A DNA stretch of 64,000 bases from Acidocella sp. (GTDB lineage Bacteria; Pseudomonadota; Alphaproteobacteria; Acetobacterales; Acetobacteraceae), in contig OZ240675.1 in NCBI GenBank assembly GCA_965198835.1, forward strand, positions 534,328 to 598,327. The letters run 5' to 3'. A program made the translations under genes and the position numbers. The notes below the pieces were generated by a model. The model searched no databases, was not told the origin of the DNA, and worked only from the letters and a program-made list of their open reading frames with translations. Below are positions 8,467 through 49,489 of this stretch, piece by piece; the stretch's first letter is position 1; each line of letters begins with the position of its first letter.

Positions 8467-9552
8467 TCAGCTTTCCAGGCGCTCACGACGCAGCGTATCC
8501 AGGGGAAGCAGTTTTCCGCTTCTTTCGAAATGCCAAAACGTCCACCCATTGCATGAAGGCGCATTCTGCACAGCGGCGCCAACTTTATGAATGGAACCGC
8601 GGTGCGCGCCGCAGATCAGGTTGCCATCGGCAGTGACTTCAGCGCCAACGCGGCGCAGCCGGTCGGTCAGCCTGGTCCCGGCCTTGATGGTGCCATTTTC
8701 GACAAAGCTGCCGAACGCGATGCGGGGCGCTTGGCGCCCCAGAGGCGGACCATGGACCGTATTTTTCGGTGCCGGGTCTTCCACCTGCAGCCGCCCCCAG
8801 GCGGCTTCGACATAAGCCGGGTGACGCTCGATGCCGATAAAATGCCGGTGCAGCCGCTTCGCGACTACCGCCGTCGTCCCTGTTCCCAAAAAGGGATCGA
8901 GAATGATGTCGCCCGGCGCTGTCGAGGCGAGTACGACCCTGTGCAGCAGCGCCTCCGGCTTTTGCGTCGGATGCAATTTCAGCCCGTGCGCGTTGCGTAG
9001 ACGCTCCGGCCCCGTACATAAAGCAATCGACCAGTCGCTGCGCATCTGCAGATCATCATTCAGCGACTTCATGCTCTGGTAGTTGAACTTGTAGCGCGAC
9101 TCCCGGCCTTTGGCCGCCCAGATCATCGTTTCATGCGCGTTCGTAAAACGGCGCCCCCGAAAATTAGGCATCGGGTTGGTCTTGCGCCATATGACGTCGT
9201 TCAGGACCCAGAACCCAAGATCCTGTAAAATAGCGCCGATGCGGAAGATATTATGGTAGCTGCCGATGACCCACAGCGTGCCGTCCTTGCGCAGCACCCG
9301 GCGGCATTCGCTCAGCCACTCCAGCGTGAATGCGTCATAGGCGGCGAAGTCGGTAAACTTGTCCCAGTCGTCATCAACCCCATCAACCAGGCTGTCGTCA
9401 GGCCGCCGCAGCTCGCCGCGCAGCTGCAGATTATATGGCGGATCGGCAAAGACGCAGTGGACCGAGGCATCCGGCAACATGCGCAGCATCTGGCCAGCGT
9501 CGCCCAGTAAAATCTGATCCAGCGGCAATTCGCGCGCAGCTTCCACGGTCAA
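8467..9552 (-). CDS. ccrM: Cell-cycle-regulated N6-adenine DNA methyltransferase CcrM (GANTC)
   Basis: 361 aa. Beta-class order with DPPYNL first and the SAM motif (ILDPFLGTGTT) later, plus the CcrM-typical C-terminal extension. Adjacent to rnhB. Confidence 0.9.
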   Translation of the reverse strand: MTVEAARELPLDQILLGDAGQMLRMLPDASVHCVFADPPYNLQLRGELRRPDDSLVDGVDDDWDKFTDFAAYDAFTLEWLSECRRVLRKDGTLWVIGSYHNIFRIGAILQDLGFWVLNDVIWRKTNPMPNFRGRRFTNAHETMIWAAKGRESRYKFNYQSMKSLNDDLQMRSDWSIALCTGPERLRNAHGLKLHPTQKPEALLHRVVLASTAPGDIILDPFLGTGTTAVVAKRLHRHFIGIERHPAYVEAAWGRLQVEDPAPKNTVHGPPLGRQAPRIAFGSFVENGTIKAGTRLTDRLRRVGAEVTADGNLICGAHRGSIHKVGAAVQNAPSCNGWTFWHFERSGKLLPLDTLRRERLES

Positions 9553-9649
9553 GACCAGCCCTCAACACAATCGTTCGGCAAACTGAAGGTGCTAACGTGT
9601 TCACGTCAATCGGCCCGGCTGCGGGAAATGGCCGGAAGCTCGACGCCGT

Positions 9650-33363: not shown

Positions 33364-33400
33364 AAAGCATGGGACGCTGAAGCATGGGACGCTGAAGCAT
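33364..33400. repeat. Short tandem repeat, about 2.5 x 15 bp (gaagcatgggacgct)
   Basis: aaagcatgggacgct / gaagcatgggacgct / gaagcat, in the convergent spacer after ftsH. Confidence 0.6.
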
Positions 33401-33780: not shown

Positions 33781-34088
33781 CGCTGACGGATAAGTGGGGG
33801 GCTTCTGTTGCCCGGTGCCCCCCGAACCGCGCTTGTTACTGCTTATTAGGCAGCGACAGCGAATGCCTCATGGTTATCATTGGCATCTGTAAAATAGCCC
33901 GATAACGGCGGTACAATGCCGAGCGAAAGACGAGCCTTTACCACGCGTGTCGAGCCTATTTCGCCCCCAAGGTCTGATCTCCAGCCGGCAAAGCCGACCG
34001 GTAACTACCAGAAGATGGTGGAGGCGCCGGGTACCGCCCCCGGGTCCACAACGTTTATTCCACGCGCCGTTTATCGCCGTAGCCGGAA
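33781..34088 (-). ncRNA. ssrA: Two-piece (circularly permuted) alphaproteobacterial tmRNA
   Basis: On the minus strand the acceptor piece ends CGCCTCCACCA (CCA end at 34016). An intervening segment follows, then a coding piece starting GGGGGCG at 33968 that pairs with it, including G3:U70. Tag ORF GCC AAT GAT AAC CAT GAG GCA TTC GCT GVC-type codons read ANDNHEAFAVAA plus TAA TAA at 33884..33843. Outer ends are approximate, +/-15 nt. Confidence 0.85.
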
Positions 34089-34101
34089 AACCAGCGCGAT
34101 T

Positions 34102-34129
34102 GCTATAGGCCATTTTAAGCTGAGGTGAA
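34102..34129 (-). promoter_or_regulatory. Candidate sigma70-type promoter of ssrA
   Basis: Minus strand reads TTCACC-16 nt-TATAGC just upstream of the inferred 5' end of the acceptor piece. Confidence 0.35.
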
Positions 34130-34282
34130 AGGGGTATGCCTGTTTCAGCACTTCAGCTTATGCCGCGTTAATGTGCCTTTGAGAGGTAGAAGCAACAAAA
34201 ATGCTGCTGAGGGGCATTGTAAAAAGCAAAAAAAGACGACATCAAGGAACAAAGCAAAGTCGAAATAATAAGGGAGCAAATA

Positions 34283-35956
34283 ATGTCCAAGGAAATGAAC
34301 AACGTTCATCGGTTGAAGAATCGTAAGCTAAAGGCATTGGCGCTGGGGGCGATTGCGCTTGGTCTGCCAGCCGGCGGATTAGTGCTGGCTGCGGCGCCGG
34401 CACTCGCCATGCAACTCTATGACGGCACGACGCAAGGCAATAACTGGGAAGTCAGCCTGGACACCACCCTTTCCTATACCGGCATGTACCGAATTGGCGA
34501 GCCTTCGACAGTGCTGGAAAACGGCGTGATCAATGGCGAAGCCAATATCAACGGCAATGATGGCGACGCCAATTTCCGCCACGGCATCGTCGCCAATCTG
34601 TTCGAAATCCTGCCGGTTCTGGATATCAAGAACAGCGATTTCGGCATGCATTTCAGCGGCGAGTATTTCGTCAACACCGTCTATCTCCAGCACAACCAGA
34701 ACAACCAGCCAGGCTACACCATCAATTCCTATACCTCCTGCCGCACCTGCTTCAATCCCGCCTCGGCCGCGGCGGAAGGCCATAACGGGCGCATGCTCGA
34801 TGCCTTCGTCTATAACAGCTGGCATTTCGGCAACGATCAGGAAATTACGCTCAAGGCCGGCAAGCAGACCCTGTTCTGGGGCCAGAGCCTGTTCTTCGGC
34901 AGCGACGGCATCTCCGGCGGCCAGGCCCCCATCGATGCCGTATCGGCCCAGAACATCGTGAATGCGCAGAGTCAGCAGACCTATCTACCGGTCGGCCAGG
35001 TCGTCGCCACCTACAAGCCGAACCTGACCTACACGCTGCAGGCCTATTACCAGTTCGAGTGGGAGCCGGATTCGCTGCAGGGTGTCGGCTCCTTCTTCAG
35101 CGGCTCGGATCTGACCGGGCCAGGCGCCAACCTGTTCATCCCGCCGCCTTTTGGGGTTTTCGGCATCGCCTTGCCGCGTTTGAAGGCGCTGACGCCGGAA
35201 TCTCAAAACGGCCAGTTCGGCGTGTCCGTACAGGCGCAATACGGCAATTACGATCTCGGCTTGTTCGTCCTGCGCTTCGATTCAAAGACGCCGACCCCGC
35301 AATTTTTTACCAATGGAAGCGGCTTTCGCTATATCTTCCCGCGTGACATCTGGATCTACGGCGGCAGCCTTGGCACCACCGTCGGCGCCACCCAGATCGG
35401 CGCGGAACTTAGCCTGCATTCCCATACGCCGCTGGTCGGCAATGGCGCCGTCATCAGCGGCGATGCCAACAGCAATCCGGGCTACCCGGTCGGCGACGCG
35501 CTGGTCGGGCTGGTCAACTTCATCTACGGCTCACCCTCGCTGCCGTTCGATCCGGGCGGCATCACCGCGGTGGGCGAGCTTTGCTATACCAACACCTTCC
35601 ACGTTACGCGCAACCCGCAAGATCTGCAGCCCGGCCGCTCGCGCGAATCGCTCTCCATGGGCGGCGATCTGATCCCGACCTATAACGAGGTGCTGCCCTT
35701 CCTGCAGCTTACCTTCCCCGTCGGCCTGATCGGCTACACCGCCGCCGGCAACTCGGAGTTCGACTCCACCCTCAACCACGGCACCGCGACCGAGTTCGAC
35801 GTCGGCATCGGTGCCACCTATCGCAGCGTCTGGACCGCCAGCCTGACCTATGTCGCGCCGTTCGGTAAGGTCACCGCCAATTCCACCCTGCCGGAATCCG
35901 GCTCCGGCACCGTCGATCGCAAATATCTGGAACTGAATATCCAACGGACATTTTAA
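34283..35956 (+). CDS. DUF1302-family outer-membrane beta-barrel protein
   Basis: 557 aa. Signal peptide ending ALA, alternating beta-strand pattern, KAGKQTLFWGQSLFFG motif, C-terminal Phe (NIQRTF). Confidence 0.7.
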   Translation: MSKEMNNVHRLKNRKLKALALGAIALGLPAGGLVLAAAPALAMQLYDGTTQGNNWEVSLDTTLSYTGMYRIGEPSTVLENGVINGEANINGNDGDANFRHGIVANLFEILPVLDIKNSDFGMHFSGEYFVNTVYLQHNQNNQPGYTINSYTSCRTCFNPASAAAEGHNGRMLDAFVYNSWHFGNDQEITLKAGKQTLFWGQSLFFGSDGISGGQAPIDAVSAQNIVNAQSQQTYLPVGQVVATYKPNLTYTLQAYYQFEWEPDSLQGVGSFFSGSDLTGPGANLFIPPPFGVFGIALPRLKALTPESQNGQFGVSVQAQYGNYDLGLFVLRFDSKTPTPQFFTNGSGFRYIFPRDIWIYGGSLGTTVGATQIGAELSLHSHTPLVGNGAVISGDANSNPGYPVGDALVGLVNFIYGSPSLPFDPGGITAVGELCYTNTFHVTRNPQDLQPGRSRESLSMGGDLIPTYNEVLPFLQLTFPVGLIGYTAAGNSEFDSTLNHGTATEFDVGIGATYRSVWTASLTYVAPFGKVTANSTLPESGSGTVDRKYLELNIQRTF

Positions 35957-36049
35957 GGCCGCTCTCGACCGGCAGGTGAGACCTGCCGGTCGAGAGCAGA
36001 CGCTCGACAAGATGAACGGCTAAACCCAGCCTTATCACATCTCCAGCAC

Positions 36050-37207
36050 TCAGCTTGATTTGGATAGGCTTGAAGTATCAGCCCAAGCTCTGCTGGCATC
36101 GGAACCATAAAAGGCCGCGACCAGGCCTTGGACTTCCGCCGCTCTGGCAAAGCTGGGAAGCGGCTCGCCCTGGCCATGGATCGCGTCGATAAAGCGCTCG
36201 AAGAGCCTGGCCAGCGAGACACGCTGTCCGCCATTCATCAGATCCGCAGGTCCATGTTCGACAACGCGTCCGCCGACGGTCATCAGCCGCTCGGGCACCG
36301 GTACTTCAGCACCGGATGGCATATGGTTTCGGCTGTTTTTCGCGGCATATAGCTTCGCTGTATCCACGCTCGGGTAGCGCAAGGCGGAAAGCCGCAGGCG
36401 GCCTTTGCTGCCGAACGCTTCGATGGTAAAGCCGGGACTGTCCGCTGCCGTCCAGGAAGTGGTCAAGGTTCCCATCGCGCCGCTCTCGAAACTTAGAAGC
36501 GCATGGCAGGTGTCATCGGTTTCCACGTCCAGCACTTCGCCATCCGGCAGCTTCCATGTCTTCAGCTGGGTCTTGAGGTGGGCAGCGGTTGCGGTGATGG
36601 GACCGAATAAATGCCGCAGCGCATGCAGCATATGCGAGCCGTTATTGCGCGACACGCTCACCCCAAGCCCGGATTTTCCGAACCAGGTGTATGGAAACCC
36701 CGGGGATATTTCGAGGAAGAAGGACATTTGCCAGTCGCATTGCACCTGAAAAACCTGGCCTATTTCCCCCGCGTCGATCATCTCCTTCATCAGCCAAAGA
36801 TGCGGCAGGCCCAGTAGCGAGGTCGCCGCGCCGCCCATCACGCCTTTTGCGGCCCGCAGTGCCTCCAGCCTGGCCGCGACTTCATAGGACTCAGCGAAGG
36901 GCATCTGGTTGATCACATGCTTGCCGGCGTTCAGCGCCGCCGTGACCATTTTCGCCCGCAGTACAGGATTGGTGCCGACATCAATGATATCGATCTCCGG
37001 ATCGGTGCACATGGCTTCGAAGCTCCAGAACGGCCGCGCGACACCGAATTGCTTCGCCGCCGCTTCGGCCGTTTCCTGCCGCGACGTGCAGATGGCGGTA
37101 ACCTCAACATCGTCAGGCAGCGTGCGCCACGCCGGAAGATGGGCAGCCGCGCCCCAGTTTGCGCTGATAATCCCGACCTTGAGCTTACCCGTTCCTGCTC
37201 CCGCCAT
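36050..37207 (-). CDS. Gfo/Idh/MocA family oxidoreductase
   Basis: KVGIISANWGAAAHLPAW Rossmann N-terminus from ATG 37207. The longer ORF to 37396 reads through the 16-bp repeat array. Confidence 0.85.
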   Translation of the reverse strand: MAGAGTGKLKVGIISANWGAAAHLPAWRTLPDDVEVTAICTSRQETAEAAAKQFGVARPFWSFEAMCTDPEIDIIDVGTNPVLRAKMVTAALNAGKHVINQMPFAESYEVAARLEALRAAKGVMGGAATSLLGLPHLWLMKEMIDAGEIGQVFQVQCDWQMSFFLEISPGFPYTWFGKSGLGVSVSRNNGSHMLHALRHLFGPITATAAHLKTQLKTWKLPDGEVLDVETDDTCHALLSFESGAMGTLTTSWTAADSPGFTIEAFGSKGRLRLSALRYPSVDTAKLYAAKNSRNHMPSGAEVPVPERLMTVGGRVVEHGPADLMNGGQRVSLARLFERFIDAIHGQGEPLPSFARAAEVQGLVAAFYGSDASRAWADTSSLSKSS

Positions 37208-37256
37208 GTCCAATCCTCCAGCGTTTTCTTGTTCAGCGCGTTGTGCAGCACGCCGG

Positions 37257-37352
37257 CCGATTGCATGAATCGCCGATTGCAACAATCGCCGATTGCAAGA
37301 ATCGTTGATTGCAAGAATCGCCGATTGCGAGAATCGCCGATTGCAACAATCA
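37257..37352. repeat. Tandem array of six 16-bp units (consensus CCGATTGCAAGAATCG) in a divergent promoter
   Basis: Units start at 37257, 37273, 37289, 37305, 37321 and 37337. Each has CGATT-N5-AATCG inverted arms and a central TTGCAA. Four units contain GAATC (GANTC). A degenerate copy lies at 37364..37379. Confidence 0.9.
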
Positions 37353-37496
37353 AGGCTAGCCGACCGATCCGCAATATCGCCAAGCGTCTGCAACATCGCC
37401 AGGGCGATAGAAGGCGTATTGCGTCAAAGTTCTAGTCAATGTCATGTCTGCGCGCTAGTAACGCATAAGCTTCAACAAAATCGGGGATAGGAAAAG

Positions 37497-38243
37497 ATGG
37501 CCGGCAAAATAATCGTCATCACCGGGGCGAATGGTGGTCTGGGGCGTACGCTGGCCAAAAGATTTGCCGATGACGGCGAGAAGCTGGTGCTTCTCGGGCG
37601 GAATATCGCCAAGGTGGAACAAGTTGCCCAAACGGTTGGCGGCGGAGCTATCGCCATCGCTTGCGACGTCGCTTCGCCGGACTCCGTGCGGGCCGCCTTT
37701 GCAAAAATAGCCGAGACCTATTCGAAGATCGACGTGCTGATCAACAATGCCGCCGTCTTCCAGCCCTTCCTGGTGCAGGAAGCCTCCGACGCGCAGATCA
37801 TGGGCTCGCTGCTCACCAACCTGGCCGGACCTATCCTTTGTGCGCGCTCTGCCATCCCCCTGATCAACCGCGGCGGCCATATCATCAACCTGACATCGGA
37901 GTCGATCGTCGAGCCCTTCCCGCATCTGACATTGTACCAATCCTCCAAAGCAGGGCTGGAATCCTTCTCGCTGCATCTAAAGAAGGAACTGGATGATTTA
38001 GGCACCGGCATTCGGGTCACGATCGTTCGCGCTGGACAGATGTATGGGCCGGATAGTACGATCGAGATGGAACCGGTCGCGGCGCAGCGCTTTCAGGAGG
38101 CTTCCTTGAAGCGAGGCCTGAATTTCATGGCGCGCGGGGTCACGCAATACAGTTCTACTGTGGACATCTTCCGGCTGCTGCTCGACCTGCCGCAGGATGT
38201 TCAGGTCGGCGCGATCATGTTCGAAAGCCGCGTACCTACCTAA
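37497..38243 (+). CDS. SDR family oxidoreductase
   Basis: VITGANGGLGRTLA glycine motif, NNAA, YQSSK catalytic motif. Confidence 0.85.
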   Translation: MAGKIIVITGANGGLGRTLAKRFADDGEKLVLLGRNIAKVEQVAQTVGGGAIAIACDVASPDSVRAAFAKIAETYSKIDVLINNAAVFQPFLVQEASDAQIMGSLLTNLAGPILCARSAIPLINRGGHIINLTSESIVEPFPHLTLYQSSKAGLESFSLHLKKELDDLGTGIRVTIVRAGQMYGPDSTIEMEPVAAQRFQEASLKRGLNFMARGVTQYSSTVDIFRLLLDLPQDVQVGAIMFESRVPT

Positions 38244-38300
38244 TAACGCGTTGCCTAAAACCGGCGAGCCGCAAAGGCTCCAAGAGGAGAGGAAGTTCAA

Positions 38301-39767
38301 ATGATATTCGAGGATGGCAAACTTTATATAGACGGCAAACTTCGGGAAGCGGCCAATAGCGCCAAATATCCGGATATCGACCCCTGGACGGGCGAGATTG
38401 CAGGTTATGCGGCCGATGCCTCTACGGAGGACATGGACGAGGCGATCGTCGCCGCCCGGCGGGCTTTCGATACCACCGATTGGGCCACCAACCACACGCT
38501 GCGCCGGGAACTGGTGGTTAAGCTGGGTGAGAAACTGCGCGCCAACCGGGAACGACTGGTAGAGATTGCAAGGCACGAAGCCGGCGCCCCGATGGGCGCT
38601 GTATTCAGTGCCCAGGTCGATGGCCCGCTTAGCTTCTTCGAGGATTTGCTGAAAATCTTCGACGCGCTGGAATGGGAAAAGCCGATGGGCGAGCGCGAGG
38701 GTTATGGTTCGCTCAGCTCGCGTCTGCTGGTCAAGGAACCGGCCGGCGTGGTTGGCGCCATCACGCCTTGGAACGTCCCGCTCTACATCACCGTGGGCAA
38801 AGTCATCCCAGCCCTGCTGGCCGGCTGCACGGTGATTATCAAACCGGCACCGGACACACCGCTCTTCAGCACGATCCTCGGCGAGCTTGCCCATGAGATC
38901 GGATTTCCACCCGGCGTCCTTAATGTCGTCTCCGGCAGCGATCCCGTGACTTTGGGCGAGATGCTGGTCACTGACAAACGCGTTGACGTGATTTCCTTCA
39001 CCGGTTCGACGGGTGTCGGACGGCGCATCATGGAAAAAGGCGCACCCACGCTAAAACGGCTCTTCCTCGAGCTCGGCGGTAAATCTGCGGCCATCTTCCT
39101 GGATGACGCGCCGTATTTCGCGGAGACGGTGGCACAGATGATGTGCGTCTATCACGCCGGCCAGGGCTGCGCGAACCTGACGCGGCTATTGGTGCCGGAG
39201 AGCCGCTATGCCGAAGCGGTGGCGAGCCTGGAGGCGGCCTATGCCGGCTTCAGCCAAACCTGGGGCGGCTTCGATGAGCCCAGCAACGTCATGGGACCGG
39301 TGATCTCCGCGCGCCAGCGCGACCGGGTGATGAGCTATATCGAAATCGGCAAAGCCGAGGGCGCGAAGCTGATCGCCGGCGGCAACATCGCAACCGACAA
39401 AGGCAACGGCTTTTTTGTCGAGCCTACCTGCTTCGTCGACGTAACGAACGACATGCGGATTGCGCGCGAGGAAATCTTTGGCCCGGTACAGGTGCTCATC
39501 CCCTTCAAGGACGACGAAGACGCAATTCGCATCGCCAATGACAGCGACTACGGCCTCTCCGGCATGATTTTCTCAGGCGATAGCGAACGCGCAACGAAAA
39601 TTGCCAAGCGCATCCGCACCGGCACCATCGGCGTGAATGGCGGCATGTCCATCACCGTCGATCTGCCCTTCGGCGGCTACAAGCAGAGCGGCATCGGCAA
39701 GGAATGGGGATTGGAAGGTTTCGAAGAGTATCTCGAGACGAAAGTGATCGCTACCAGGGCGCAATGA
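38301..39767 (+). CDS. NAD(P)-dependent aldehyde dehydrogenase
   Basis: 488 aa with FTGSTGVGRRI, ELGGKSA, the catalytic Cys region GQGCAN and EEIFGPV. Confidence 0.9.
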   Translation: MIFEDGKLYIDGKLREAANSAKYPDIDPWTGEIAGYAADASTEDMDEAIVAARRAFDTTDWATNHTLRRELVVKLGEKLRANRERLVEIARHEAGAPMGAVFSAQVDGPLSFFEDLLKIFDALEWEKPMGEREGYGSLSSRLLVKEPAGVVGAITPWNVPLYITVGKVIPALLAGCTVIIKPAPDTPLFSTILGELAHEIGFPPGVLNVVSGSDPVTLGEMLVTDKRVDVISFTGSTGVGRRIMEKGAPTLKRLFLELGGKSAAIFLDDAPYFAETVAQMMCVYHAGQGCANLTRLLVPESRYAEAVASLEAAYAGFSQTWGGFDEPSNVMGPVISARQRDRVMSYIEIGKAEGAKLIAGGNIATDKGNGFFVEPTCFVDVTNDMRIAREEIFGPVQVLIPFKDDEDAIRIANDSDYGLSGMIFSGDSERATKIAKRIRTGTIGVNGGMSITVDLPFGGYKQSGIGKEWGLEGFEEYLETKVIATRAQ

Positions 39768-40513
39768 GCTCCTCCGGCGCAGCACTCGCCAAACAGGCTA
39801 CCCAACCCGCCAATCGGGGCCTGCCCAAGGTGAGTCATAACCTGTTCGGCCAGCGACTGGGCCGGAAAGGACAGGAAACACGGGAGCGCATCCTCGCGAC
39901 CGCGTTGCGGCTGATCGAAGTCTCTCACGGGCTGCCACTGACCTTGTCGGCTGTCGCCCGTGAGGCTTCGGTCGGCATGACTACCCTGTATTTATACTTC
40001 CCCGATTTGAGCGACTTGATGCTGGCAGTGCTTACCCGCGTCACCAGCGACGTGGATGCCGCCTTCGAGGCGCAGTTGGGCTCAAGATGGCCGGATGGGA
40101 CGCTGCAGAAAAGCTGCATCGATTTCCTGCGCGCCTATTACGAGTTTTGGGGCCGCCATGCCCAGGTACTACACATGCGCAACCGTTACGCGGATGCAGG
40201 GGATAACCGCTTTCTCGAATACCGTACGCGCGCTTGCCGTCCTTTGATCACGGCGCTGATGCGCCAGATGGATACGGCTATCAAGGACCGCGACACCGCT
40301 TCCGGTGGCATGGCGACGATCATGATGATCAGCTTCGAGAGATTGGCGACTATCATCAACAGCCCAAGCTTTCTCGCCGCCATCAAGGAAGACGCCATCC
40401 ATGACGAAAGCCGGTTCATCGAGCGGCTGATCTGGTCCGAGGCCGAAATGATGACACTGGTCATCCGCCAGCAGCGCGGTGCATTGGCAAAGGCGGAGGA
40501 AGCAGGCGCATAG
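39764..40513 (+). CDS. TetR/AcrR family transcriptional regulator
   Basis: HTH region ILATALRLIEVSHGLPLTLSAVAREASVGMTTLYLYFPD. ATG 39764 overlaps the ALDH stop (ATGA). Confidence 0.8.
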   Translation: MSSSGAALAKQATQPANRGLPKVSHNLFGQRLGRKGQETRERILATALRLIEVSHGLPLTLSAVAREASVGMTTLYLYFPDLSDLMLAVLTRVTSDVDAAFEAQLGSRWPDGTLQKSCIDFLRAYYEFWGRHAQVLHMRNRYADAGDNRFLEYRTRACRPLITALMRQMDTAIKDRDTASGGMATIMMISFERLATIINSPSFLAAIKEDAIHDESRFIERLIWSEAEMMTLVIRQQRGALAKAEEAGA

Positions 40514-40754
40514 ACGCGTCCTCACTCAAACTCAACTCTGGCTATTTTCCAACTCGTTCAAAATTAGCTCAAACTCGACCGCTTTTGGAAATCCCTGGAA
40601 CACCGCGAACTGCAATAACTGCAATACGAAATCCTGCGCGGCCTGCGTCAGCGGCGAAGCTGGCGCCCTGGGCTTAACCCCCAGTATCGCGGCCAGTATA
40701 GCCTCAGTATCGCGCGATAGGTTTCGCGCCCGCGCGCGACCCGCGCGTCCTCCA

Positions 40755-41567
40755 TCAACTGCTACCCTGCGGTTTTTTGCCGATGGTTGTGAGGTGGCGT
40801 TTCATGCCTTCGGCATAATCGGGCGAGAGCATCAACGTGCTGTTCGCCATACGCTCGACATGACGCGCCATGTCGAGGCCGACATCGCGCGCCATCTCAA
40901 TGGCGATTTTGGCTGTTCCCATTTGTTCAAGGCTGTTCCCGGCCAAATGCCGGCAAAACGCCAGCGCCTTGTCCTGAAAACCCTCATCGGGCCATACTTC
41001 GTGCACCAGTCCCATCACATAGGCTTTATCGGAATCAACCGGTAGGTTTCCCATGATGAGATAGCGCGCCCAATGGGTGCCTACGATGCGCGTCAGGCGG
41101 CTGACGCCGTTGGAGGCGGGCAGCGAGCCGAATTTGCTTTCCGGGAAAGCGTAGCTGGCACTTTTGGCGGCCAGGCGGAAATCGCAGGACAGCGAAAGTT
41201 CCAAACCGCCGCCAACGCAAGCGGCATGATGCGCCACCACGATCGGCTTTTCGATATGCTCCATCTCATCGTAAATGCGGTGCATGCCGTTGAGATGCAG
41301 CCGATGATTCTCGCGTATGCCCGAACCGGTATTTGGCATTTCCCGGATCGGACCACTTTGCTTCAGATCGGCGCCGGCGCAGAAATAACGACCGGTCGCC
41401 TTGATCAGCATCACCCGCAATTCCGGCGTGTCGCGAAAATGGTGTAGCGTCGTCTCGAAAATCTCCAGTGTCTCCCGATCCAGCGCGTTCAGTTTCTCGG
41501 GCCGGTTCAGGGTGCAGATGATGATCGGACCATCTTCATCGACGAGCATATGCGGAGCTTCGGACAT
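40755..41567 (-). CDS. Enoyl-CoA hydratase/isomerase (crotonase) family protein
   Basis: 270 aa with ICTLNRPEKLNAL, FCAGADL and ACVGGGLELSLSCD. Confidence 0.85.
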   Translation of the reverse strand: MSEAPHMLVDEDGPIIICTLNRPEKLNALDRETLEIFETTLHHFRDTPELRVMLIKATGRYFCAGADLKQSGPIREMPNTGSGIRENHRLHLNGMHRIYDEMEHIEKPIVVAHHAACVGGGLELSLSCDFRLAAKSASYAFPESKFGSLPASNGVSRLTRIVGTHWARYLIMGNLPVDSDKAYVMGLVHEVWPDEGFQDKALAFCRHLAGNSLEQMGTAKIAIEMARDVGLDMARHVERMANSTLMLSPDYAEGMKRHLTTIGKKPQGSS

Positions 41568-42074
41568 AGATCATTTCCTTGTTGCGCGCGTCTGTCGCGC
41601 TTTGGTTAAGGCCGTTGTGACGGCCGCCATTCCGCAGCTTCCGCCCGCCGCTCTTTTTGAAGCCTTATAAGCGTCGGCAGAGGCAGTTTCACGGTTCCAT
41701 TAAAACAGGCAGAAGGAAATCCGTCCATTCGAGCATCATGACGCGACTTTGCCGCCCCGTAATGGTGCCCAGCCGCCGCTTGCGCTTGGGCTGCTTGATC
41801 CGGCGGCCAAGGCGGCGGATGCCGGCGCTATGAAATCCCTCATGAACCGAGGCATTGCCCGGTGCAGTCCACACTGGGAGATTGACCACCCTTTCCTTGG
41901 GGATGCGCTTCGGATGACCGTCTGATCGCATCGCGACCGCTCTAGCGGGGCCTAATCGGAGCTTAATCATTGAGACAGGCATGGACGGCGCGCCGAACCG
42001 ATTGCAGGATGGCGCCAGCGGCGTGAACAGTATGGCGAGGTGATGCAAAGCGCCCGCAACCATAGCCAGAGGAG

Positions 42075-42752
42075 ATGAGCATGAGCGTTGTTGTCGTTAC
42101 CGGTGCATTCGGCGCGCTAGGTCGGGTCGTCGTGGCGGAACTGGCAAAGCAAGGCTTTAGCGTTGCGGCGGTCGATGTCGCGCCGGCGCCGGCGCAGGGC
42201 GATGCGGTACTTGCCTTGGGTGGCGTGGATCTGGCCGATGAACCTGCGGTGGTTGCTGCCTACGCGGAAGTTGCGGAAAAGCTGGGCAGTCTTGATGCGC
42301 TGGTTAATATCGCCGGCGGTTTTACCTGGGAGCCGATAGAAACCGGGTCGATCGAAAGCTGGGACAGCATGTACCGCATAAATTTGCGCACCGCCGCCGC
42401 CTCATGCCGCGCCGCGCTGCCGCATTTGCTGAAAAACGGCGGCGCCATCGTCAATGTGGGCGCCGCGGGGGCGATACAGCCAGCCGCCGGCATGGCGCCC
42501 TATGCTGCTTCAAAAGCCGGGGTGCGGGCGCTGACCGAAAGCCTGGCTGAAGAAATGCGAACCAAGAACATCCGTGTCAATGCGATTCTGCCAACCATCA
42601 TGGATACGCCTGCCAACCGGTCCAGCATGCCGGACGCCGACACCTCCGCCTGGGTCCGCCCCGAGGCCGCCGCGAAGGTTATTGCGTTTCTGCTCTCCGC
42701 GGAATCAGGGGCCGTAACCGGCGCCAGCGTACCGCTTTCACTCGCCGGCTGA
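42075..42752 (+). CDS. SDR family oxidoreductase
   Basis: VVVTGAFGALGRVV, NIAGG, YAASKAG. Confidence 0.85.
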   Translation: MSMSVVVVTGAFGALGRVVVAELAKQGFSVAAVDVAPAPAQGDAVLALGGVDLADEPAVVAAYAEVAEKLGSLDALVNIAGGFTWEPIETGSIESWDSMYRINLRTAAASCRAALPHLLKNGGAIVNVGAAGAIQPAAGMAPYAASKAGVRALTESLAEEMRTKNIRVNAILPTIMDTPANRSSMPDADTSAWVRPEAAAKVIAFLLSAESGAVTGASVPLSLAG

Positions 42753-42936
42753 AAAGCGGCCGTTGCTTAGCATCCAACTTCGCTCAATCTTCTAAAAATG
42801 CCATCCGCTGGCGGCCGAAGCTGTAATGTGGCCTGATCCATAAGAACGCGGCATTGACCGCAGAATATGAACCGGTGAATGCTCGGTCCGCGCAAGGGTA
42901 AACGATCCGACCCGTTAACGAGGAAGCAAGCCGACC

Positions 42937-43374
42937 ATGGATACCCATGTTGCAAGGCCCGTGACGGCAAGACCGGCCCATGCGCCGGAACAGGCCTTCT
43001 ATGATTCTGCCATGTATCTTGATCCCGAACTGCTTCAGGAACCGCATTAGCGCGTGCGACAGATCGTGCGCGAAGCGCCAACGGTGTTCTGTACGCCGCG
43101 AATGGCGGCCGTTGGGTCGCCATCGGCCATGGAGACAACAACGCGCTGTCGCGCAGAGCCTGAGATATTCACCAGCGCGATCATCCGGGTTGCATTCGCC
43201 GCGGCCATCTGCTCGCAATTGCCGGCGGGTTCCGGCCATGTTCCGGATCCGACGCCGAGCAACCTCGACCGGCCTGCCCACGCGTGTTCCGCGCCGCTGC
43301 AGGGCGCCTTCCCGCCCAAGGCCCATCTCGGTAACATCATCGCTATTGGTTCTCCTCCGCCACTTTGGGATTAA
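42937..43374 (+). pseudogene. Decayed N-terminal remnant of a CYP101-like cytochrome P450
   Basis: HAPEQAFYDSAMYLDPELLQEPH, an in-frame TAG at 43048..43050, then RVRQIVREAPTVFCTP. The NGGRWVAIGHG motif is readable only in another frame (about 43101..43160). The frame then returns with EPEIFTSA...LDRPAHACSAPLQGAFPPKA (DPPxH-like). It is cut off by the DUF35 gene after about 140 codons. Confidence 0.5.
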
Positions 43375-43376
43375 GC

Positions 43377-43778
43377 ATGTCAAACCGTCCGCTGCCGCGC
43401 CTCGATTCCGATAACCGCTTCTTCTGGACCAGCGGCGCCGATGGCGTATTGCGGTTTCTGCAATGCGAGGAATGCGCGACCTTTGTTCATCCGCCGCGCC
43501 CGGTTTGCCCGCATTGCCTGTCGGAGGCCGTAACGCCTGCCGCCGTTCCGGGAACCGGCATCATCGACACGTTCACGATCAACCACCAGAAATGGCGCCC
43601 CGACCTTGAGGTGCCGTTCGTCATCGCACGGGTTGCGATCGATGGCGCGCCGGGCGTGATCCTCACCACCAATATCGTCGGCTGCGCGCCCGATCAGGTA
43701 GAGTTCGGCGATAAGGTCAAGGTCACCTTCGAGCAGCAGGACGATGTGTGGATTCCGCTTTTTGAGAAAGTAGCCTGA
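43377..43778 (+). CDS. Zn-ribbon/OB-fold DUF35 protein
   Basis: FWTSGADGVLRFLQCEECATFVHPPRPVCPHC (4-Cys ribbon) followed by an OB-fold. Immediately precedes the thiolase-like gene. Confidence 0.85.
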   Translation: MSNRPLPRLDSDNRFFWTSGADGVLRFLQCEECATFVHPPRPVCPHCLSEAVTPAAVPGTGIIDTFTINHQKWRPDLEVPFVIARVAIDGAPGVILTTNIVGCAPDQVEFGDKVKVTFEQQDDVWIPLFEKVA

Positions 43779-43779
43779 G

Positions 43780-44940
43780 ATGGCGCTACCCGACGCATTC
43801 ATCACGGGCATAGGCCAATCGCAGATCGGCGCCAGACTGACACGCCATCCCCTGTTGCTAACGCTGGATGCAATTCGCGAGGCGCTGGACGAATCGGGAC
43901 TGACCATCGCCGATATCGACGGCATCTCCACCTATCCCGGCAAAGCCGCCGGGTATCTTGGGTTCTCGCCGGTCGGCTCTGAAGACTTGATCGACGCGCT
44001 GCGGATGACAATCCACTGGTATGCCGGCGGGTTCGAAACCTCCTCGCAGCTTGGCGCCGTGGTTGCCGCGGCCAACGCCGTGCGCGCCGGCCAGGCCCGG
44101 CATGTGATCTGCTTTCGCACTGTCTATGAGGCCGCGGCGATGGCGCGGCCCGAAGCCTATCCCGCACCCAGAGGCGATCGCGCCGAGGGCGGCTCGCAAT
44201 GGACCATGCCGTTCAACGCATATTCGGCGGCGACCTGGGTGGCGCAATACGCGATGCGGCACGTCAAGCGCTATGGCTTGAAGCGCGAGCAGCTGGCGCA
44301 GATTGCCCTGACGGATCGTAAACACGCTTTGCTCAACCCGCGCGCCATGGTGCGCGAGGAGCTGACCATGGACCAATACATGAATGCGCGGATGATCGCC
44401 GATCCGCTCTGCCTCTACGATTGCGACCGTTTCAGCGATGCCTCGACCGTGCTGATCGTCTCCGCCGCGGAGGCGATCGGCGAGGTTAAATGCACCCCTA
44501 TCCGCATCGCCGCCGGCGCCTATGCGACCGAGCGCCATAGCTGGGATCAGTCTGAGTGGATGGCGGCCTATTCCACCGGCGCGCAGCTTTGGAAATATAC
44601 CGACTACAAGCCCAAGGACGTCGATACCGTCCAGCTTTATGACGGGTTCGCCTTCCTTTCTTTGACCTGGCTGGAAGGCCTTGGTTTTTGCGGTGTGGGT
44701 GAGGCCGGCCGTTTCATCGAAGGCGGTCAACGCCTGGCCTTGGATGGCGAGCTGCCCTTCAACACCTTCGGCGGCCAGATCGGCGCCGGGCGCCTGCACG
44801 GCTTTGGGTTTGCGCATGAGGCGGTGACGCAGCTGCGCGGGCTTGGCGGCGACCGCCAGATACCCGGCGATCCGCGCGTCGCGGTCGCCGCTTCCGGCGG
44901 CGGACCGCTGGCGACGGCATTGCTGTTGGCTCGAGACTAG
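43780..44940 (+). CDS. SCP2/lipid-transfer-type thiolase-like protein (DUF35 partner)
   Basis: 386 aa. Thiolase-fold pattern with LYDCDRFSDAS, VQLYDGFAF and FNTFGGQIGAGRLHGF. Lies 1 nt after the DUF35 stop. Confidence 0.8.
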   Translation: MALPDAFITGIGQSQIGARLTRHPLLLTLDAIREALDESGLTIADIDGISTYPGKAAGYLGFSPVGSEDLIDALRMTIHWYAGGFETSSQLGAVVAAANAVRAGQARHVICFRTVYEAAAMARPEAYPAPRGDRAEGGSQWTMPFNAYSAATWVAQYAMRHVKRYGLKREQLAQIALTDRKHALLNPRAMVREELTMDQYMNARMIADPLCLYDCDRFSDASTVLIVSAAEAIGEVKCTPIRIAAGAYATERHSWDQSEWMAAYSTGAQLWKYTDYKPKDVDTVQLYDGFAFLSLTWLEGLGFCGVGEAGRFIEGGQRLALDGELPFNTFGGQIGAGRLHGFGFAHEAVTQLRGLGGDRQIPGDPRVAVAASGGGPLATALLLARD

Positions 44941-44943
44941 AAC

Positions 44944-45654
44944 ATGCAGCCCGGCTATCGCCGCCGTATCCTTATCGAACCCGGCCCGGCCCGGGTGACC
45001 GCCGAGCTGGAGGATGACTATCACCGGATGGTTGTCACGCTGACACATGAGGATGGCATCGTCACCGAAGTTTCCAGCGAAATGAAACGCTCGCCCTGGA
45101 CGCTTTGCCCGGGCGCCATGGCGCAGCTTGCGGCTACCTTTACCGGCGTGCCGCTTGCCGGTTTTCCTAAGCGTGGCGAGAAAAGTCAGAACTGCACGCA
45201 TCTGCACGATCTGGCGTTGTTCGCTGCGGCACACGCGAACGAAACAGCTTCGGTGGCGTATGATATCATTGTAACCGATCCGGTGAACGGCGACCGGCAG
45301 GCGCAGCTGAAGCGAAATGGTGAGCTGTTACTGAACTGGCAGCTGCAGGGTGATCTTTTTCTCGAGCCCACCGCCCTGCAGGGCATCCGCCTGACGGAGA
45401 TGAACCCCTGGATAGGCAGCCTGGATAAAGCCGGCGCCGAAATGGCGCGCATTTTGCGCTGGGCCTCCTTTATCGCCTCCGGCCGCGCACGGGAGATGCC
45501 TGCGGGAATGCCGGCAACCGCCTTCCCCGGCAGCGCCTGCTATAATTTTCAGCCTGAAAGGGCAGTCTACTCCACCCGCCGTCCGGCCGCGGATATCGAT
45601 TTCAGCCGCCCTTACGCTGAGCCGATGGCGGACAGATCGGCGGCCTTCGCCTGA
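44944..45654 (+). CDS. DUF2889 domain protein
   Basis: ELEDDYHRMVVTLTHEDGIVTEV....RSPWTLCPGA matches the DUF2889 signature. Confidence 0.7.
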   Translation: MQPGYRRRILIEPGPARVTAELEDDYHRMVVTLTHEDGIVTEVSSEMKRSPWTLCPGAMAQLAATFTGVPLAGFPKRGEKSQNCTHLHDLALFAAAHANETASVAYDIIVTDPVNGDRQAQLKRNGELLLNWQLQGDLFLEPTALQGIRLTEMNPWIGSLDKAGAEMARILRWASFIASGRAREMPAGMPATAFPGSACYNFQPERAVYSTRRPAADIDFSRPYAEPMADRSAAFA

Positions 45655-45745
45655 GATTACGCTTATTTGTTCAACACAAGCCGTGCTACGTGCTAATGTC
45701 CAATGACAAAAGAACTGCCACTTTAATGGTTTACGGAGGAATATA

Positions 45746-47077
45746 ATGAAAGTCGAAGACCTCATCATCGTCAGCGTCGATGACCACATCGTCGAGCCGC
45801 CCAACATGTATGACAATCACCTCACCGGGCCGCAAAAGGCCTTTGCGCCGGAAATGCGCAAAGATGAAAACGGCATCGATTTCTGGCTCTATGAAGGTCA
45901 GCGCCGCGGCTCGATCGGACTCAATGCGGTGGTCGGCCGCCTGAAGGAGGAATATGGCTGCGAGCCGGTTTCCCTGCAGCAGATGCGCAAAGGCGCCTGG
46001 GACATCCATTCGCGCATCGAGGATATGAACGCCAACGGCATTCTCTCCTCGCTGAATTTTCCGAGCGTCATCGGCTTTGACGGCGATCTGTTCCATAAAT
46101 TCGAGAACAAGCAGAACGCGCTGGTCATCCTGCGCGCCTATAACGACTGGCATATCGATGAATGGTGCGGCCTCTACCCCGGCCGCAATATTCCAAACGC
46201 GGTTCTACCCTACTGGGACATCAAGGAGTTGGTTGCGGAAATCAAACGGGTTGCCGCCAAAGGCTGCCACAACCTTTCCTTTACCGACAATCCGGCAACC
46301 AAAGGCTTCCCCAGCATTCATAACCCCTATTGGGAGCCGATGTGGAAGGCCTGCGCCGAGAACGACATGGTTATCAATATCCATATCGGCTCAGGCGTTT
46401 CCGCCCCTCACGCTTCGATGGAATCACCGATCGGTGCCTGGATCACCACGATGCCGATCGCCATCGTCAACTCGGCATCGGATTGGCTGCATCTGGAGGC
46501 GCTGCAGCGTTATCCGCTGAAAATCTCGCTTTCCGAAGGCGGGATCGGCTGGATACCCTATTTCACGGAGCGTGCCGACTTTTCATTTGGCCAGCATAAC
46601 GCCTGGACGCATCAAAGCTTCGGGCAAGGGCGCAAGCCAAGCGACGTGTTCAAGGAACATTTCCTGACCTGCTTCATCGACGACAAATTCGGCCTGGCCA
46701 ATGTCGACGCCATCGGCGAGGACAACATCGCCTATGAATGCGACTACCCGCATTCCGACTGCCTGTGGCCGGAAGCGCCGGAACTGCTGCATGCAAGCCT
46801 GAAGCATCTTTCCGACCGCGTGATCGACAAAATCAGCCACCTGAACTCGCTTAGCCGCTTTAACTTCGATGCTTTCGCCATGATGGGCGGCCGCGAAAAC
46901 TGCACGGTCGGTGCGCTTCGCAAACTTGCCTCGCACGTCGATACCAGGCCGAAATCCTTCGGCGGCCCTGCGCCCTTGCCGCCGGGCGAGAAGCCCCGCC
47001 TTGTCACGTCCGGCGATATTGCCAAGATGTTCATGGGCGTCACCAAAGCGGACGGAAAGGTCAAGGAATCCGCCTGA
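45746..47077 (+). CDS. Amidohydrolase-2 (ACMSD/LigW-like) family metal-dependent hydrolase/decarboxylase
   Basis: 443 aa with the N-terminal VSVDDHIVEPP motif, NIHIGSG and ECDYPHSD. Confidence 0.75.
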   Translation: MKVEDLIIVSVDDHIVEPPNMYDNHLTGPQKAFAPEMRKDENGIDFWLYEGQRRGSIGLNAVVGRLKEEYGCEPVSLQQMRKGAWDIHSRIEDMNANGILSSLNFPSVIGFDGDLFHKFENKQNALVILRAYNDWHIDEWCGLYPGRNIPNAVLPYWDIKELVAEIKRVAAKGCHNLSFTDNPATKGFPSIHNPYWEPMWKACAENDMVINIHIGSGVSAPHASMESPIGAWITTMPIAIVNSASDWLHLEALQRYPLKISLSEGGIGWIPYFTERADFSFGQHNAWTHQSFGQGRKPSDVFKEHFLTCFIDDKFGLANVDAIGEDNIAYECDYPHSDCLWPEAPELLHASLKHLSDRVIDKISHLNSLSRFNFDAFAMMGGRENCTVGALRKLASHVDTRPKSFGGPAPLPPGEKPRLVTSGDIAKMFMGVTKADGKVKESA

Positions 47078-47158
47078 AGATTTCTAACTTGGGCGGCTGG
47101 GCAATGTGCCTGGCTGCCGATAGGCAAAGGAAGAAGCCGGTTTCGAGGAAAATCGGCG

Positions 47159-47545
47159 CTAAAAACTTCGACTCTGAGCCTGGGGCGCCGGCATGAAGAC
47201 GGCCCCGACCCAGACCCAGACCCAGACCCAGAAAGTCTTTTCTGAGGTGGACGGCCAGCCTTCGTCTGCTTCCGGAAAAAGCACTGCTTTCTTCTTAATG
47301 TTGCGTTGGAACAGTCCGAATACGTGCCGCCGTGTCTCGATGGTGAACGGCTTGCTAAGGACATGCATCCCGAGCCGCAGATGACCGAAAACCGCGCTCT
47401 CGGCCTGGCCCGTGATGAAAAGCACCTTCTGTTCAGGCCGTAGCGCCAAAGCGGCATCTGCAAGCTGGCGGCCATCGATGCCATCCGGAAGGCCGACATC
47501 GGTCACCAGCAGATCGACCCGGCTCCTGCCCTGCAGATGTTTCAA
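47159..47545 (-). pseudogene. 5'-truncated response-regulator receiver remnant
   Basis: DLLVTDVGLPDGIDG, KVLFITGQAE and LSKPF are present, but beta1/alpha1 with the acidic pair is absent. The frame upstream runs straight into the MFS stop codon. The only start is a TTG. Confidence 0.5.
47207..47232. repeat. Hexanucleotide microsatellite (GACCCA)4
   Basis: gacccagacccagacccagacccaga. Translates as WVWVWVWV in the remnant ORF. Confidence 0.9.
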
Positions 47546-47605
47546 TCCGGTTGATGATGCATTTAGCGTGCGATGACCGGTCTCTGGCCCGCGGCGAAGC
47601 GGATT

Positions 47606-49312
47606 TCAGGGATCGTTGTGCACATAGCGGCGGCCCCGGGTCCAGGAGGCCGCGGCCGCCACGGCGCATGCCGCGGCGGCAAAGATAAACGCCTCGGTCA
47701 GGCCGGCATGAAACGGCGCGGCGATAAGATCGGGGAAGAAGTGCTGGCCGGTCAGCACCTGAGCATCGGCGGCCGGCAAGCTGCTGAGCACCTTGCCGCC
47801 GATCATGCTCTGGATCGGGTTATAGCCGAGAAAGGCGGCGAACAGGATGGAGACCGGCGGCAACTGCGCGACCGCCTGCGCCTGCGCGGCCGGGACACCA
47901 TGCTGCATCAGCCCCTGAACGAGGGTGGTGGAAAGGGTGCCCGAAAGGCCGTTGAGGATGAGGGTGAAGAAAATGCCGATCGAGAACACCTGCGCGGAGT
48001 TCTGGAAGGTGCTGTTCATGCCGCCGCCGGCGCCGCGATCGTCCGGCGGCAGGCTGTTCATGATGGCGGCCCGATTGGGCGCCGCAAACGCGCCCATCGC
48101 CATGCCGTTGATCAGCAGAATGGCGGCGAAGATTCCGTAGTTGAAATCAACCGGCAGGAAAATCAGCAGCAGGAAACTGAACGCCGCCGCCAGCATGCCG
48201 CCGGTGGTGAAATAGCGCGCGCCCACCCGGTCTGACAGAAATCCGGAGACCGGGCCGGCCAGCAGAAACCCCAGCGTCATCGGCAGCATCAGGATGCCGG
48301 CCCAGAGCGGCGTTTGCTCGAAACTGTAGCCGTGCAGCGGCAGCCAGATGCCCTGCAGCCAGACGATCAGCATGAACATCAGACCGCCGCGGCCGATCGA
48401 GGAGAGGAAGGTGGAAAGCGTGCCGAAGGTAAAAGCCCGGATCTTGAACAAAGGCAGGCGGAACATGGGGTTTTCAACGCGCGACTCGATCCCGACAAAG
48501 ACGATAAGCAGCAAGGTTCCGCCGCCCAGCAAAGCCAGGACGGTTGGGCTGGTCCAGGCCATGGCGTGACCGTCCGCAGGCTCGATGCCATAGGTGATGC
48601 CGATCATCAGTGCGACCAGCCCGACGCCGAACGTGGCGTTGCCGGCCCAATCGATGGAGGTGGATTGGCGACGGCCGATTTCCTTTAGCGCGAGAAACGA
48701 CCAGATTGTGCCGACAATCCCGAATGGCACCGAGACCAGGAAAACCAGCCGCCAGTTGATGGCCGCCAGCACGCCGCCCAGCACCAGGCCGAAAAACGAG
48801 CCGCTGATGCCGGCGATGTTGCTGATGCCAAGGGCCAAGCCGCGCTGGTTGGAAGGAAACACATCGGTGAGGATGGCGCTGGAATTGCCGGTGATGAAGG
48901 CGGCGCCGACGCCCTGGAAGATGCGGCCGACGACAAGCCACATGGCGCCCGCCTGGGCCGAGAGCGGATCGACCGCCAGCACCAGGGAGAAGACGGTGTA
49001 GACCAAATAGCCGAAATTATACATTTTAACGCGGCCGAACATGTCGCCGAGCCGGCCGAAGCTGACCACCAACACGCTGCTGACAATGATGTAGCCCAGG
49101 ATCATCCAGAGCAAATAGAAGGTATTGCGCGCTTGCAGCGGGTTGAGGCCGATGCCGCGGAAGATCTGCGGCAGGGCGATCAGCATGATCGAGGAATCGA
49201 TCGTTGCCAGCAGCACCCCGACCGTGGTGTTGCCGAGCACGAGCCATTTGTAGCGCGGCGAGCCTGTCTGCTCGACCGTCTCCGGGCCCGGTTTGGAAAT
49301 GGAAATGCTCAT
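47606..49312 (-). CDS. MFS transporter, DHA2 (14-TMS, EmrB/QacA-like) family
   Basis: About 568 aa from ATG 49312. 14 hydrophobic segments with GRLGDMFGR and LGISNIAGISG motifs. Confidence 0.85.
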   Translation of the reverse strand: MSISISKPGPETVEQTGSPRYKWLVLGNTTVGVLLATIDSSIMLIALPQIFRGIGLNPLQARNTFYLLWMILGYIIVSSVLVVSFGRLGDMFGRVKMYNFGYLVYTVFSLVLAVDPLSAQAGAMWLVVGRIFQGVGAAFITGNSSAILTDVFPSNQRGLALGISNIAGISGSFFGLVLGGVLAAINWRLVFLVSVPFGIVGTIWSFLALKEIGRRQSTSIDWAGNATFGVGLVALMIGITYGIEPADGHAMAWTSPTVLALLGGGTLLLIVFVGIESRVENPMFRLPLFKIRAFTFGTLSTFLSSIGRGGLMFMLIVWLQGIWLPLHGYSFEQTPLWAGILMLPMTLGFLLAGPVSGFLSDRVGARYFTTGGMLAAAFSFLLLIFLPVDFNYGIFAAILLINGMAMGAFAAPNRAAIMNSLPPDDRGAGGGMNSTFQNSAQVFSIGIFFTLILNGLSGTLSTTLVQGLMQHGVPAAQAQAVAQLPPVSILFAAFLGYNPIQSMIGGKVLSSLPAADAQVLTGQHFFPDLIAAPFHAGLTEAFIFAAAACAVAAAASWTRGRRYVHNDP

Positions 49313-49489
49313 GCTTGCACAAATCCTGGCTTGCACGCGGTTTTTCTGGCCAGGCGGAATTCAGGCGCCAATCTCATTCTCCCCTTGTCCAAGGTACAGC
49401 AACCGGCGCGCGCATCAAGCGCGCAGCGACGCGCGGACCGGCGCGCGGACTGGCGCGCGGAGCTGTGAACTGCTTGCAAGGCGCTTACG

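Follow-up and report, generated by a model that had tools for sequence, protein, structure and literature searches.

Bacterial intergenic minisatellites, or variable-number tandem repeats (VNTRs), are made up of short units in non-coding DNA that follow one another head to tail with no spacers between them. The loci used in multiple-locus VNTR analysis (MLVA), the mycobacterial interspersed repetitive unit (MIRU) VNTRs of Mycobacterium and the octamer repeats of Brucella belong to this group. Here we describe an array of the same general form in a 64,000-nucleotide stretch of DNA from Acidocella sp. (assembly GCA_965198835.1, contig OZ240675.1, positions 534,328 to 598,327), referred to below as the window. 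The array is built from six 16-bp units and lies between two divergent transcription units, the gene for an oxidoreductase of the Gfo/Idh/MocA family (Gfo) and an operon encoding a short-chain dehydrogenase (SDR), an aldehyde dehydrogenase (ALDH) and a TetR-family regulator. Like MLVA-type VNTRs, it is found in one lineage while relatives have a single copy or none, its units are moderately diverged, and its existence can be explained by slippage or unequal recombination. It differs in that VNTRs are polymorphic in copy number, whereas this array is known from one genome, and in that its unit holds a short inverted repeat. On balance, we consider the array to be probably a lineage-specific, non-coding minisatellite of the VNTR type that arose by tandem duplication or slippage of a short inverted-repeat segment in an unconstrained part of the divergent spacer.

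Several other classes of repeated DNA offer points of comparison. Repetitive extragenic palindromes (REP), bacterial interspersed mosaic elements (BIME) and the rhizobial intergenic mosaic elements (RIME) are likewise short palindromic intergenic units, but a genome holds tens to hundreds of them at dispersed places, whereas the unit described here occupies one place in 64 kb and appears as an array in none of the public collections scanned. In iterons and plasmid centromeres such as parC and sopC, too, a protein-binding unit, often one with an internal dyad, is directly repeated in tandem. These elements are linked to rep or par genes and are usually helix-phased at about 11 or 22 bp, whereas the present array is chromosomal and catabolic in its setting, has a period of 16 bp, lacks adjacent rep or par genes and has no plasmid match. 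The genes around it encode Gfo/Idh/MocA, SDR, ALDH, TetR, DUF1302 and enoyl-CoA hydratase proteins, which places it outside the iterons and centromeres. Contingency tracts, exemplified by the TAAA repeat of nadA in Neisseria and the TA repeat of hif in Haemophilus, are made of perfect, highly mutable units of 1-7 bp and are found in host-adapted pathogens. Regulators of the TetR family can occupy multi-dimer operators, as QacR does at IR1 and EthR at its 55-bp operator. Finally, the CcrM/GcrA-controlled promoters of Caulobacter, among them ctrA P1, ftsZ and mipZ, carry one or two GANTC sites at fixed promoter positions and drive cell-cycle genes (PMC3973325, PMC3667746).

Architecture of the array

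The array is a regular structure and the strongest tandem repeat of the window. Tandem Repeats Finder (TRF) reported it at 37256-37351 with a period of 16, 6.0 copies, 87% matches, 0 indels and a score of 150, and the runner-up in the window scored 72. The units read exactly as given in an earlier interpretation made from the letters of this DNA alone (the original prediction). They differ from the consensus CCGATTGCAAGAATCG at 1, 1, 0, 2, 1 and 2 positions in units 1 to 6, respectively, which amounts to 7 substitutions in 96 bp. When the window was searched with this consensus at up to three mismatches, six matches were found, all of them in-register units of the array; dinucleotide-preserving shuffles (n=100) yielded a mean of 1.16 matches, and 0/100 reached six. 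The units abut directly, with no unique spacers between the repeats, so that the array is not a CRISPR (clustered regularly interspaced short palindromic repeats) locus, in agreement with the prediction. Also as predicted, the array lies between the divergent genes, at measured distances of 49 bp from the Gfo start and 144 bp from the SDR ATG.

The symmetry of the array needs a more cautious description than it was first given. Every unit had been credited with inverted arms, CGATT-N5-AATCG, around a TTGCAA palindrome. Perfect arms are present in four of the six units and TTGCAA also in four, where it sits off-centre relative to the arms; the motif pair is real, yet it is neither shared by all units nor concentric. 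The second palindrome at the junctions, AATCG-C-CGATT, had been treated as a feature of its own, but it is an automatic product of the repetition, because any repeated unit that starts with CGATT and ends with AATCG creates one. Similarly, 'nearly self-complementary' overstates a self-complementarity of 63% at the best register, with inverted-repeat arms that are 71-73% complementary. The symmetry of the array catches the eye because a short inverted repeat was repeated, and the supposedly undescribed design, unit and junction palindrome together, arises whenever a short inverted repeat is duplicated in tandem. A seventh, 'decayed' unit suggested downstream of the sixth matches at 10/16 positions, lies 11 bp out of register and has 287 equally good matches in the window; we reject it as a chance resemblance.

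The array is non-coding, a conclusion of the original prediction that stands even though its argument from reading frames was wrong. A mechanically called open reading frame (ORF) at 36050-37396 on the minus strand spans the entire array without a stop, and it stays open because 96 bp correspond to 32 codons. A coding repeat is nevertheless ruled out by the start of the Gfo homologues at 37207, by the presence of a Shine-Dalgarno sequence and by orthologous loci without the segment. Homologues of 379-385 aa, with 97-98% query coverage, align from the ATG at 37207, and the Shine-Dalgarno motif GGAGG lies at 37215-37219, 7 nt upstream of that ATG. The stop-free frame lengthens the Gfo ORF by 63 codons upstream across the array, and gene callers may mis-annotate a repeat-bearing N-terminal extension of the protein. 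One homologue, P0005, is 441 aa long, perhaps through a similar over-extension.

Origin and distribution

Related loci were gathered by homologue searches with the Gfo and TetR proteins, by contig look-ups and by one protein-based metagenome scan with an SDR alignment. The metagenome scan added two relatives, L020 and L021, of which L021 was left out, being without the conserved upstream module described below. The comparison set comprises nine related SDR-ALDH-TetR loci with TetR identities of 52-78%. Loci L014 and L015, from two independent samples and with an identical spacer, share the divergent Gfo arrangement and have Gfo and TetR proteins that are 86% and 78% identical to those of the window. 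A divergent Gfo gene is also found in L016 and L020. In L028, L029 and L030 the TetR is 72-74% identical, and the upstream gene is a different one in the first two and partial in the third, while in L031 and L033, the latter from Acidocella aquatica, TetR identity drops to 52-56%. Identical flanking proteins were encountered only on the source contig itself (ENA ERZ25067513 contig_1, in two records).

None of these loci (0/9) contains the array. The comparison with L014, the closest relative, is particularly informative about its origin. If only one unit of the array is kept, the spacer of the window becomes collinear with the spacer of L014. At the matching place L014 carries one degenerate unit, CCGATTGCCGATAGAAC, and beyond it the flank GAG.C.AGCCGAC.CCGA that is also found in the window. 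L014 and L015 share this arrangement of one degenerate proto-unit with collinear flanks; at the homologous position of L016 and L020 there is no proto-unit. Since L014 has one proto-unit at the collinear position, the array was amplified after the split from the L014 lineage.

These observations are consistent with a simple path. The starting point would be one 16-bp segment with the inverted arms CGATT...AATCG in the Gfo-proximal spacer. Replication slippage or unequal recombination may then have duplicated this segment in tandem and expanded it to six copies, which would have gathered their seven point substitutions afterwards. With the array in place, the distance from the Gfo start to the conserved module is longer by about 80 bp, and there are four additional CcrM target sites. 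Any effect on Gfo expression would be a by-product of the altered spacing, of a changed 5' leader or of the extra methylation sites, and the array would not be a dedicated protein-binding device. We infer both that slippage was the origin and that the array serves no dedicated function.

The original prediction had proposed a search for the unit as a dispersed repeat, and this search found no further copy in the 64-kb window and no array in the public collections scanned. Among 185,579 species genomes (one genome per species), the two-unit pattern GATTGCNNNAATCGCCGATTGC gave 11 single matches in unrelated phyla, at a chance expectation of roughly 4 by our own estimate (19 specified bases, about 1.2e12 positions), and there was no array at any of the 11 match loci. 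A two-unit pattern with 24 specified bases had 0 matches in the metagenomes of the Joint Genome Institute (JGI), and viral contigs likewise gave 0 matches. With matches this close to chance, none of them in an array, and with nothing in JGI metagenomes and viral contigs, a dispersed repeat family can be set aside. As far as the search of the window and of the public collections can tell, the array appears not to be a dispersed repeat. Among 72,556 plasmids there was no match to the region 36000-40600 by megablast or to the spacer by blastn, and a plasmid or mobile origin is accordingly rejected.

As it stands, the array is one more instance of a well-known kind, the lineage-specific tandem repeat in non-coding bacterial DNA, and matters little. 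If conspecific genomes appear, the locus would serve well for strain typing, or as a natural experiment on how much variation in spacing a divergent promoter tolerates.

A conserved module outside the array

What is conserved in the spacer lies elsewhere. Conservation was assessed by aligning, for seven loci, the 130 bp next to the SDR gene. A dyad, ATCGC-N4-GCGAT, is found in exact form upstream of the SDR gene in seven of the nine relatives (L014, L015, L016, L020, L028, L031 and L033); of the remaining two, L029 has one mismatch and the copy of L030 is degenerate. The dyad is followed by ATTGC (37418-37422 in the window) and then by a box, GTCAAT...TGCGCGCTAGTAA, an order that is conserved over the TetR identity range of 52-100%. 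The dyad keeps a fixed distance to the SDR ATG, 88-92 bp in close relatives and 75-76 bp in distant ones, and its distance to the upstream gene is variable (64-187 bp). The array thus lies in the length-variable part of the spacer, outside the module of dyad and box that belongs to the SDR-ALDH-TetR operon.

The position and conservation of the dyad make it a better candidate for the TetR operator than the array, with the TetR encoded in the operon as the putative binding protein. Related catabolic clusters have further exact dyads in other intergenic positions (L014 4693-4706, L016 2025-2038 and L029 5303-5316), and the dyad may accordingly be regarded as a candidate operator of a regulon to which TetR would bind. 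The box at 37435-37462 probably corresponds to the promoter region of the SDR operon; a sigma-70 consensus scan found no match in it. Consensus scans for sigma-70-like promoters and for terminators in or beside the array were also negative, in a setting in which such scans are insensitive, as they also miss the promoter-like box of the SDR gene. For further work the conserved dyad is the more useful lead, being a testable candidate operator of an uncharacterised TetR family linked to SDR-ALDH operons.

Weighing the alternatives

Several observations pull against a minisatellite without dedicated function. The array is known from one genome, and copy-number variation is the hallmark of VNTRs; the single-locus evidence in the source genome comes from the 64-kb window of a 3.65-Mb contig. 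The CGATT and AATCG arms are intact in four of six units, and the substitutions are mostly central, which is the direction expected of a constrained dyad. Counted from the unit table, 2/7 substitutions fall within the 10 arm positions (one-sided p ~0.07), a weak trend that is not significant. Folding of the single strand is somewhat more stable than that of shuffled sequence (z about -2.3). The unit holds ATCGC and ATTGC, as does the conserved operator region, although these are common 5-mers and occur in the array in one orientation. Lastly, GANTC is 2.7-fold depleted in the window, yet the array is its densest four-site cluster. The explanations that follow are taken from the least to the most improbable. 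A dedicated regulatory role of the array, be it as a new operator, a methylation switch, a leader or a contingency tract, is without positive support, and the version with a conserved operator is contradicted.

A newly evolved multi-site operator or decoy is unlikely. In this explanation the local TetR, or another dimeric regulator, cooperatively binds the CGATT-N5-AATCG or the AATCG-C-CGATT dyads and in this way regulates the Gfo gene, the SDR operon or the two together. Each unit does offer a 5+5 dyad, at 144 bp or more upstream of the SDR ATG, the setting is a divergent promoter region beside an operon that ends in a TetR gene, and multi-dimer operators of TetR-family proteins are established by QacR and EthR, whose repeated or extended dyads also lie in the promoter region of a TetR-encoding operon. 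Such operators are, however, conserved with their regulator, whereas all nine loci with an orthologous TetR lack the array and ATCGC-N4-GCGAT is conserved instead, which contradicts the predicted multi-site TetR operator as a conserved feature. The half-site spacing differs as well, most relatives conserving ATCG-N6-CGAT while the junctions of the array read ATCG-N1-CGAT. In addition, the 16-bp period puts successive sites on opposite faces of the helix. The shared 5-mers ATCGC and ATTGC might be taken as a sign of TetR binding, but the ATyGC words of the array are all direct repeats and never inverted at operator spacing; as common words in a single orientation and at the wrong spacing, they were set aside as evidence.

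Rather improbable is a structured 5' leader, in which the array would be transcribed within a long 5' untranslated region of the Gfo gene and its repeated short hairpins would alter the stability or translation of the mRNA. The 49 bp between array and start codon leave little room for a promoter, none promoter-like was detected there, and the minus-strand RNA of 37208-37400 folds at -73.3 kcal/mol, compared with a shuffle mean of -64.1 (z = -2.25). This z-score is modest, as is that of single-stranded DNA (-2.29), and leaves the run of hairpins envisaged by the original prediction unsupported. The stems are 5 bp long and compete with many other folds, the minimum free energy structure having a frequency of 0.01 in the ensemble, and the structure is missing in relatives. 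The explanation moreover depends on where Gfo transcription starts. No known RNA family was matched in Rfam, the search of the array region returning only a chance match of 17.8 bits to a microRNA model with a gathering score of 99 bits (E 0.89).

The next explanations turn on the GANTC sites and on the copy number of the array. All four GAATC sites that had been listed as CcrM targets are present, and, as also stated at the time, the window encodes a CcrM homologue. It aligns to positions 2-349 of the 350 positions of NF050803 (E 2.9e-178) with 592 bits, below the 830-bit equivalog cut-off. The window contains 97 GANTC sites, compared with 265 +/- 16 expected from dinucleotide-preserving shuffles, a depletion that fits a CcrM-bearing alphaproteobacterium; a GANTC bias is known for CcrM-bearing Alphaproteobacteria, in which intergenic sites are tolerated or enriched (PMC3973325). 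The four sites of the array lie within 69 bp, and the next four-site cluster of the window spans 315 bp. Units 2 and 6 read CAATC instead of GAATC through G-to-C changes. According to the unit table, 2/7 substitutions affect the four specified GANTC positions, where 1.75 would be expected; GANTC-destroying changes have therefore occurred at about the chance rate and offer no hint that the methylation sites are under selection. In the orthologous spacers GANTC is not conserved, each spacer holding 0 or 1 at non-homologous positions.

A co-opted amplification has slim prospects. The six phased dyads, four of them with a CcrM site at the same position, would in that case form a new platform for a methylation-sensitive or cooperative DNA-binding protein, and copy number, hemimethylation after replication or both would set the expression of the Gfo/Idh/MocA gene. 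If true, a free-living alphaproteobacterium would have recently evolved, in this array, an epigenetic or contingency switch for a catabolic gene.

Very improbable is a CcrM-dependent epigenetic or cell-cycle switch. A methylation-sensitive factor such as GcrA would here recognise the GANTC sites, or a protein bound to them would keep them hypomethylated, and transcription of the flanking catabolic genes would be gated in this way. The CcrM homologue, the depletion of GANTC in the window and the tight clustering of the sites would suit such a switch, and, as in the Caulobacter promoters, GANTC occurs in the promoter region of a CcrM-encoding alphaproteobacterium. In contrast to those promoters, the four sites were made by amplification, being multiplied copies of one site and not independent, they are unconserved, and the genes they flank are catabolic and not cell-cycle genes. 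Together with the chance-level loss of sites in units 2 and 6 and the known tolerance of intergenic GANTC, this leaves the predicted methylation-sensitive switch unsupported. If the array were nonetheless read by a methylation-sensitive factor, it would be an example of a regulatory site born by amplification.

The chance that the array is a copy-number-variable contingency tract is very slight. Gain or loss of units would shift Gfo promoter elements relative to the conserved module and yield heritable expression variants. As in known tracts, the repeat lies between a gene and upstream regulatory sites, here the nearest conserved regulatory module, so that copy number could alter spacing, and the length of the spacer on the Gfo side does vary among relatives (64-187 bp). 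However, slippage should be rare in 16-bp units that are 13% diverged when compared with the classical perfect tracts of 1-7 bp, and the locus is a catabolic one in an environmental alphaproteobacterium.

An artefact of the single available long-read assembly is next to impossible: the sequence is present in one assembly only (ERZ25067513 contig_1, two records), but its units show differences at defined positions and keep exact register with 0 indels, its flanks are collinear with independent assemblies of relatives, and artefacts do not normally make six diverged copies.

Genomic context

The features discussed above and the genes on both sides of the array are collected in Table 1.

Table 1. 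Array, conserved module and associated genes, with positions in the window unless a related locus is named.
Feature	Position	Strand	Remarks
Tandem array, six head-to-tail 16-bp units	37257..37352	.	Consensus CCGATTGCAAGAATCG, 0-2 changes per unit
Four GANTC (GAATC) sites at 37267, 37299, 37315 and 37331	37267..37335	.	Units 1, 3, 4 and 5
Claimed decayed copy	37364..37379	.	Rejected as part of the array; chance-level match
Dyad ATCGC-N4-GCGAT, candidate operator of the SDR-ALDH-TetR operon	37395..37408	+	Sole exact copy in the window
Dyad copies elsewhere	L014 3386-3399; L016 703-716; L020 847-860; L028 2127-2140; L031 2085-2098; L033 753-766		
Box GTCAATGTCATGTCTGCGCGCTAGTAAC, probable promoter region of the SDR operon	37435..37462	+	Alignment of seven loci
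Gfo/Idh/MocA oxidoreductase, 385 aa	36050..37207	-	Pfam PF01408, PF02894, PF22725; gene call in source contig
Short-chain dehydrogenase (SDR), first operon gene	37497..38243	+	Pfam PF00106; gene call
Aldehyde dehydrogenase (ALDH)	38301..39767	+	Pfam PF00171; best NCBIfam TIGR04284, under its cut-off
TetR/AcrR-family regulator, 249 aa	39764..40513	+	Pfam PF00440, 24.1 bits, just over cut-off; gene call
CcrM-type N6-adenine DNA methyltransferase homologue	8470..9561 (open frame)	-	NCBIfam NF050803; DPPY motif

Homologues of the window's TetR carry the source names AcrR or TetR, and the protein itself has weak matches to KstR, FadR and AcrR. The start of its gene overlaps the ALDH stop by 4 bp (ATGA, 39764-39767), an overlap suggesting that the regulator is translationally coupled to the operon under its probable control. 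The nearby genes at 34283-35956 and 40755-49336 encode a DUF1302 protein, an enoyl-CoA hydratase, an SDR and a ChsH2-like zinc-ribbon/OB protein, as well as a thiolase-like protein, an Amidohydro_2 protein and a transporter of the major facilitator superfamily (MFS). The clusters of the relatives additionally hold DUF1329, Rieske oxygenase, SnoaL and IclR genes. Judged by these gene families, the cluster looks like one for the catabolism of a steroid-side-chain-like or other hydrophobic substrate.

Two smaller features lie on the far side of the Gfo gene. A two-piece (permuted) transfer-messenger RNA gene of the alphaproteobacterial type (33793-34134, minus strand; RF01849, 262 bits) has a DUF2188 gene on one side and, on the other, the DUF1302 outer-membrane gene with which the catabolic cluster opens; its type confirms that the DNA is alphaproteobacterial. 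A second tandem duplication, at 33365-33400, consists of 2.4 copies of the perfect 15-bp unit AAGCATGGGACGCTG at 100% identity; it occupies the non-coding spacer between the 3' ends of ftsH and the DUF2188 gene and is younger than the 16-bp array.

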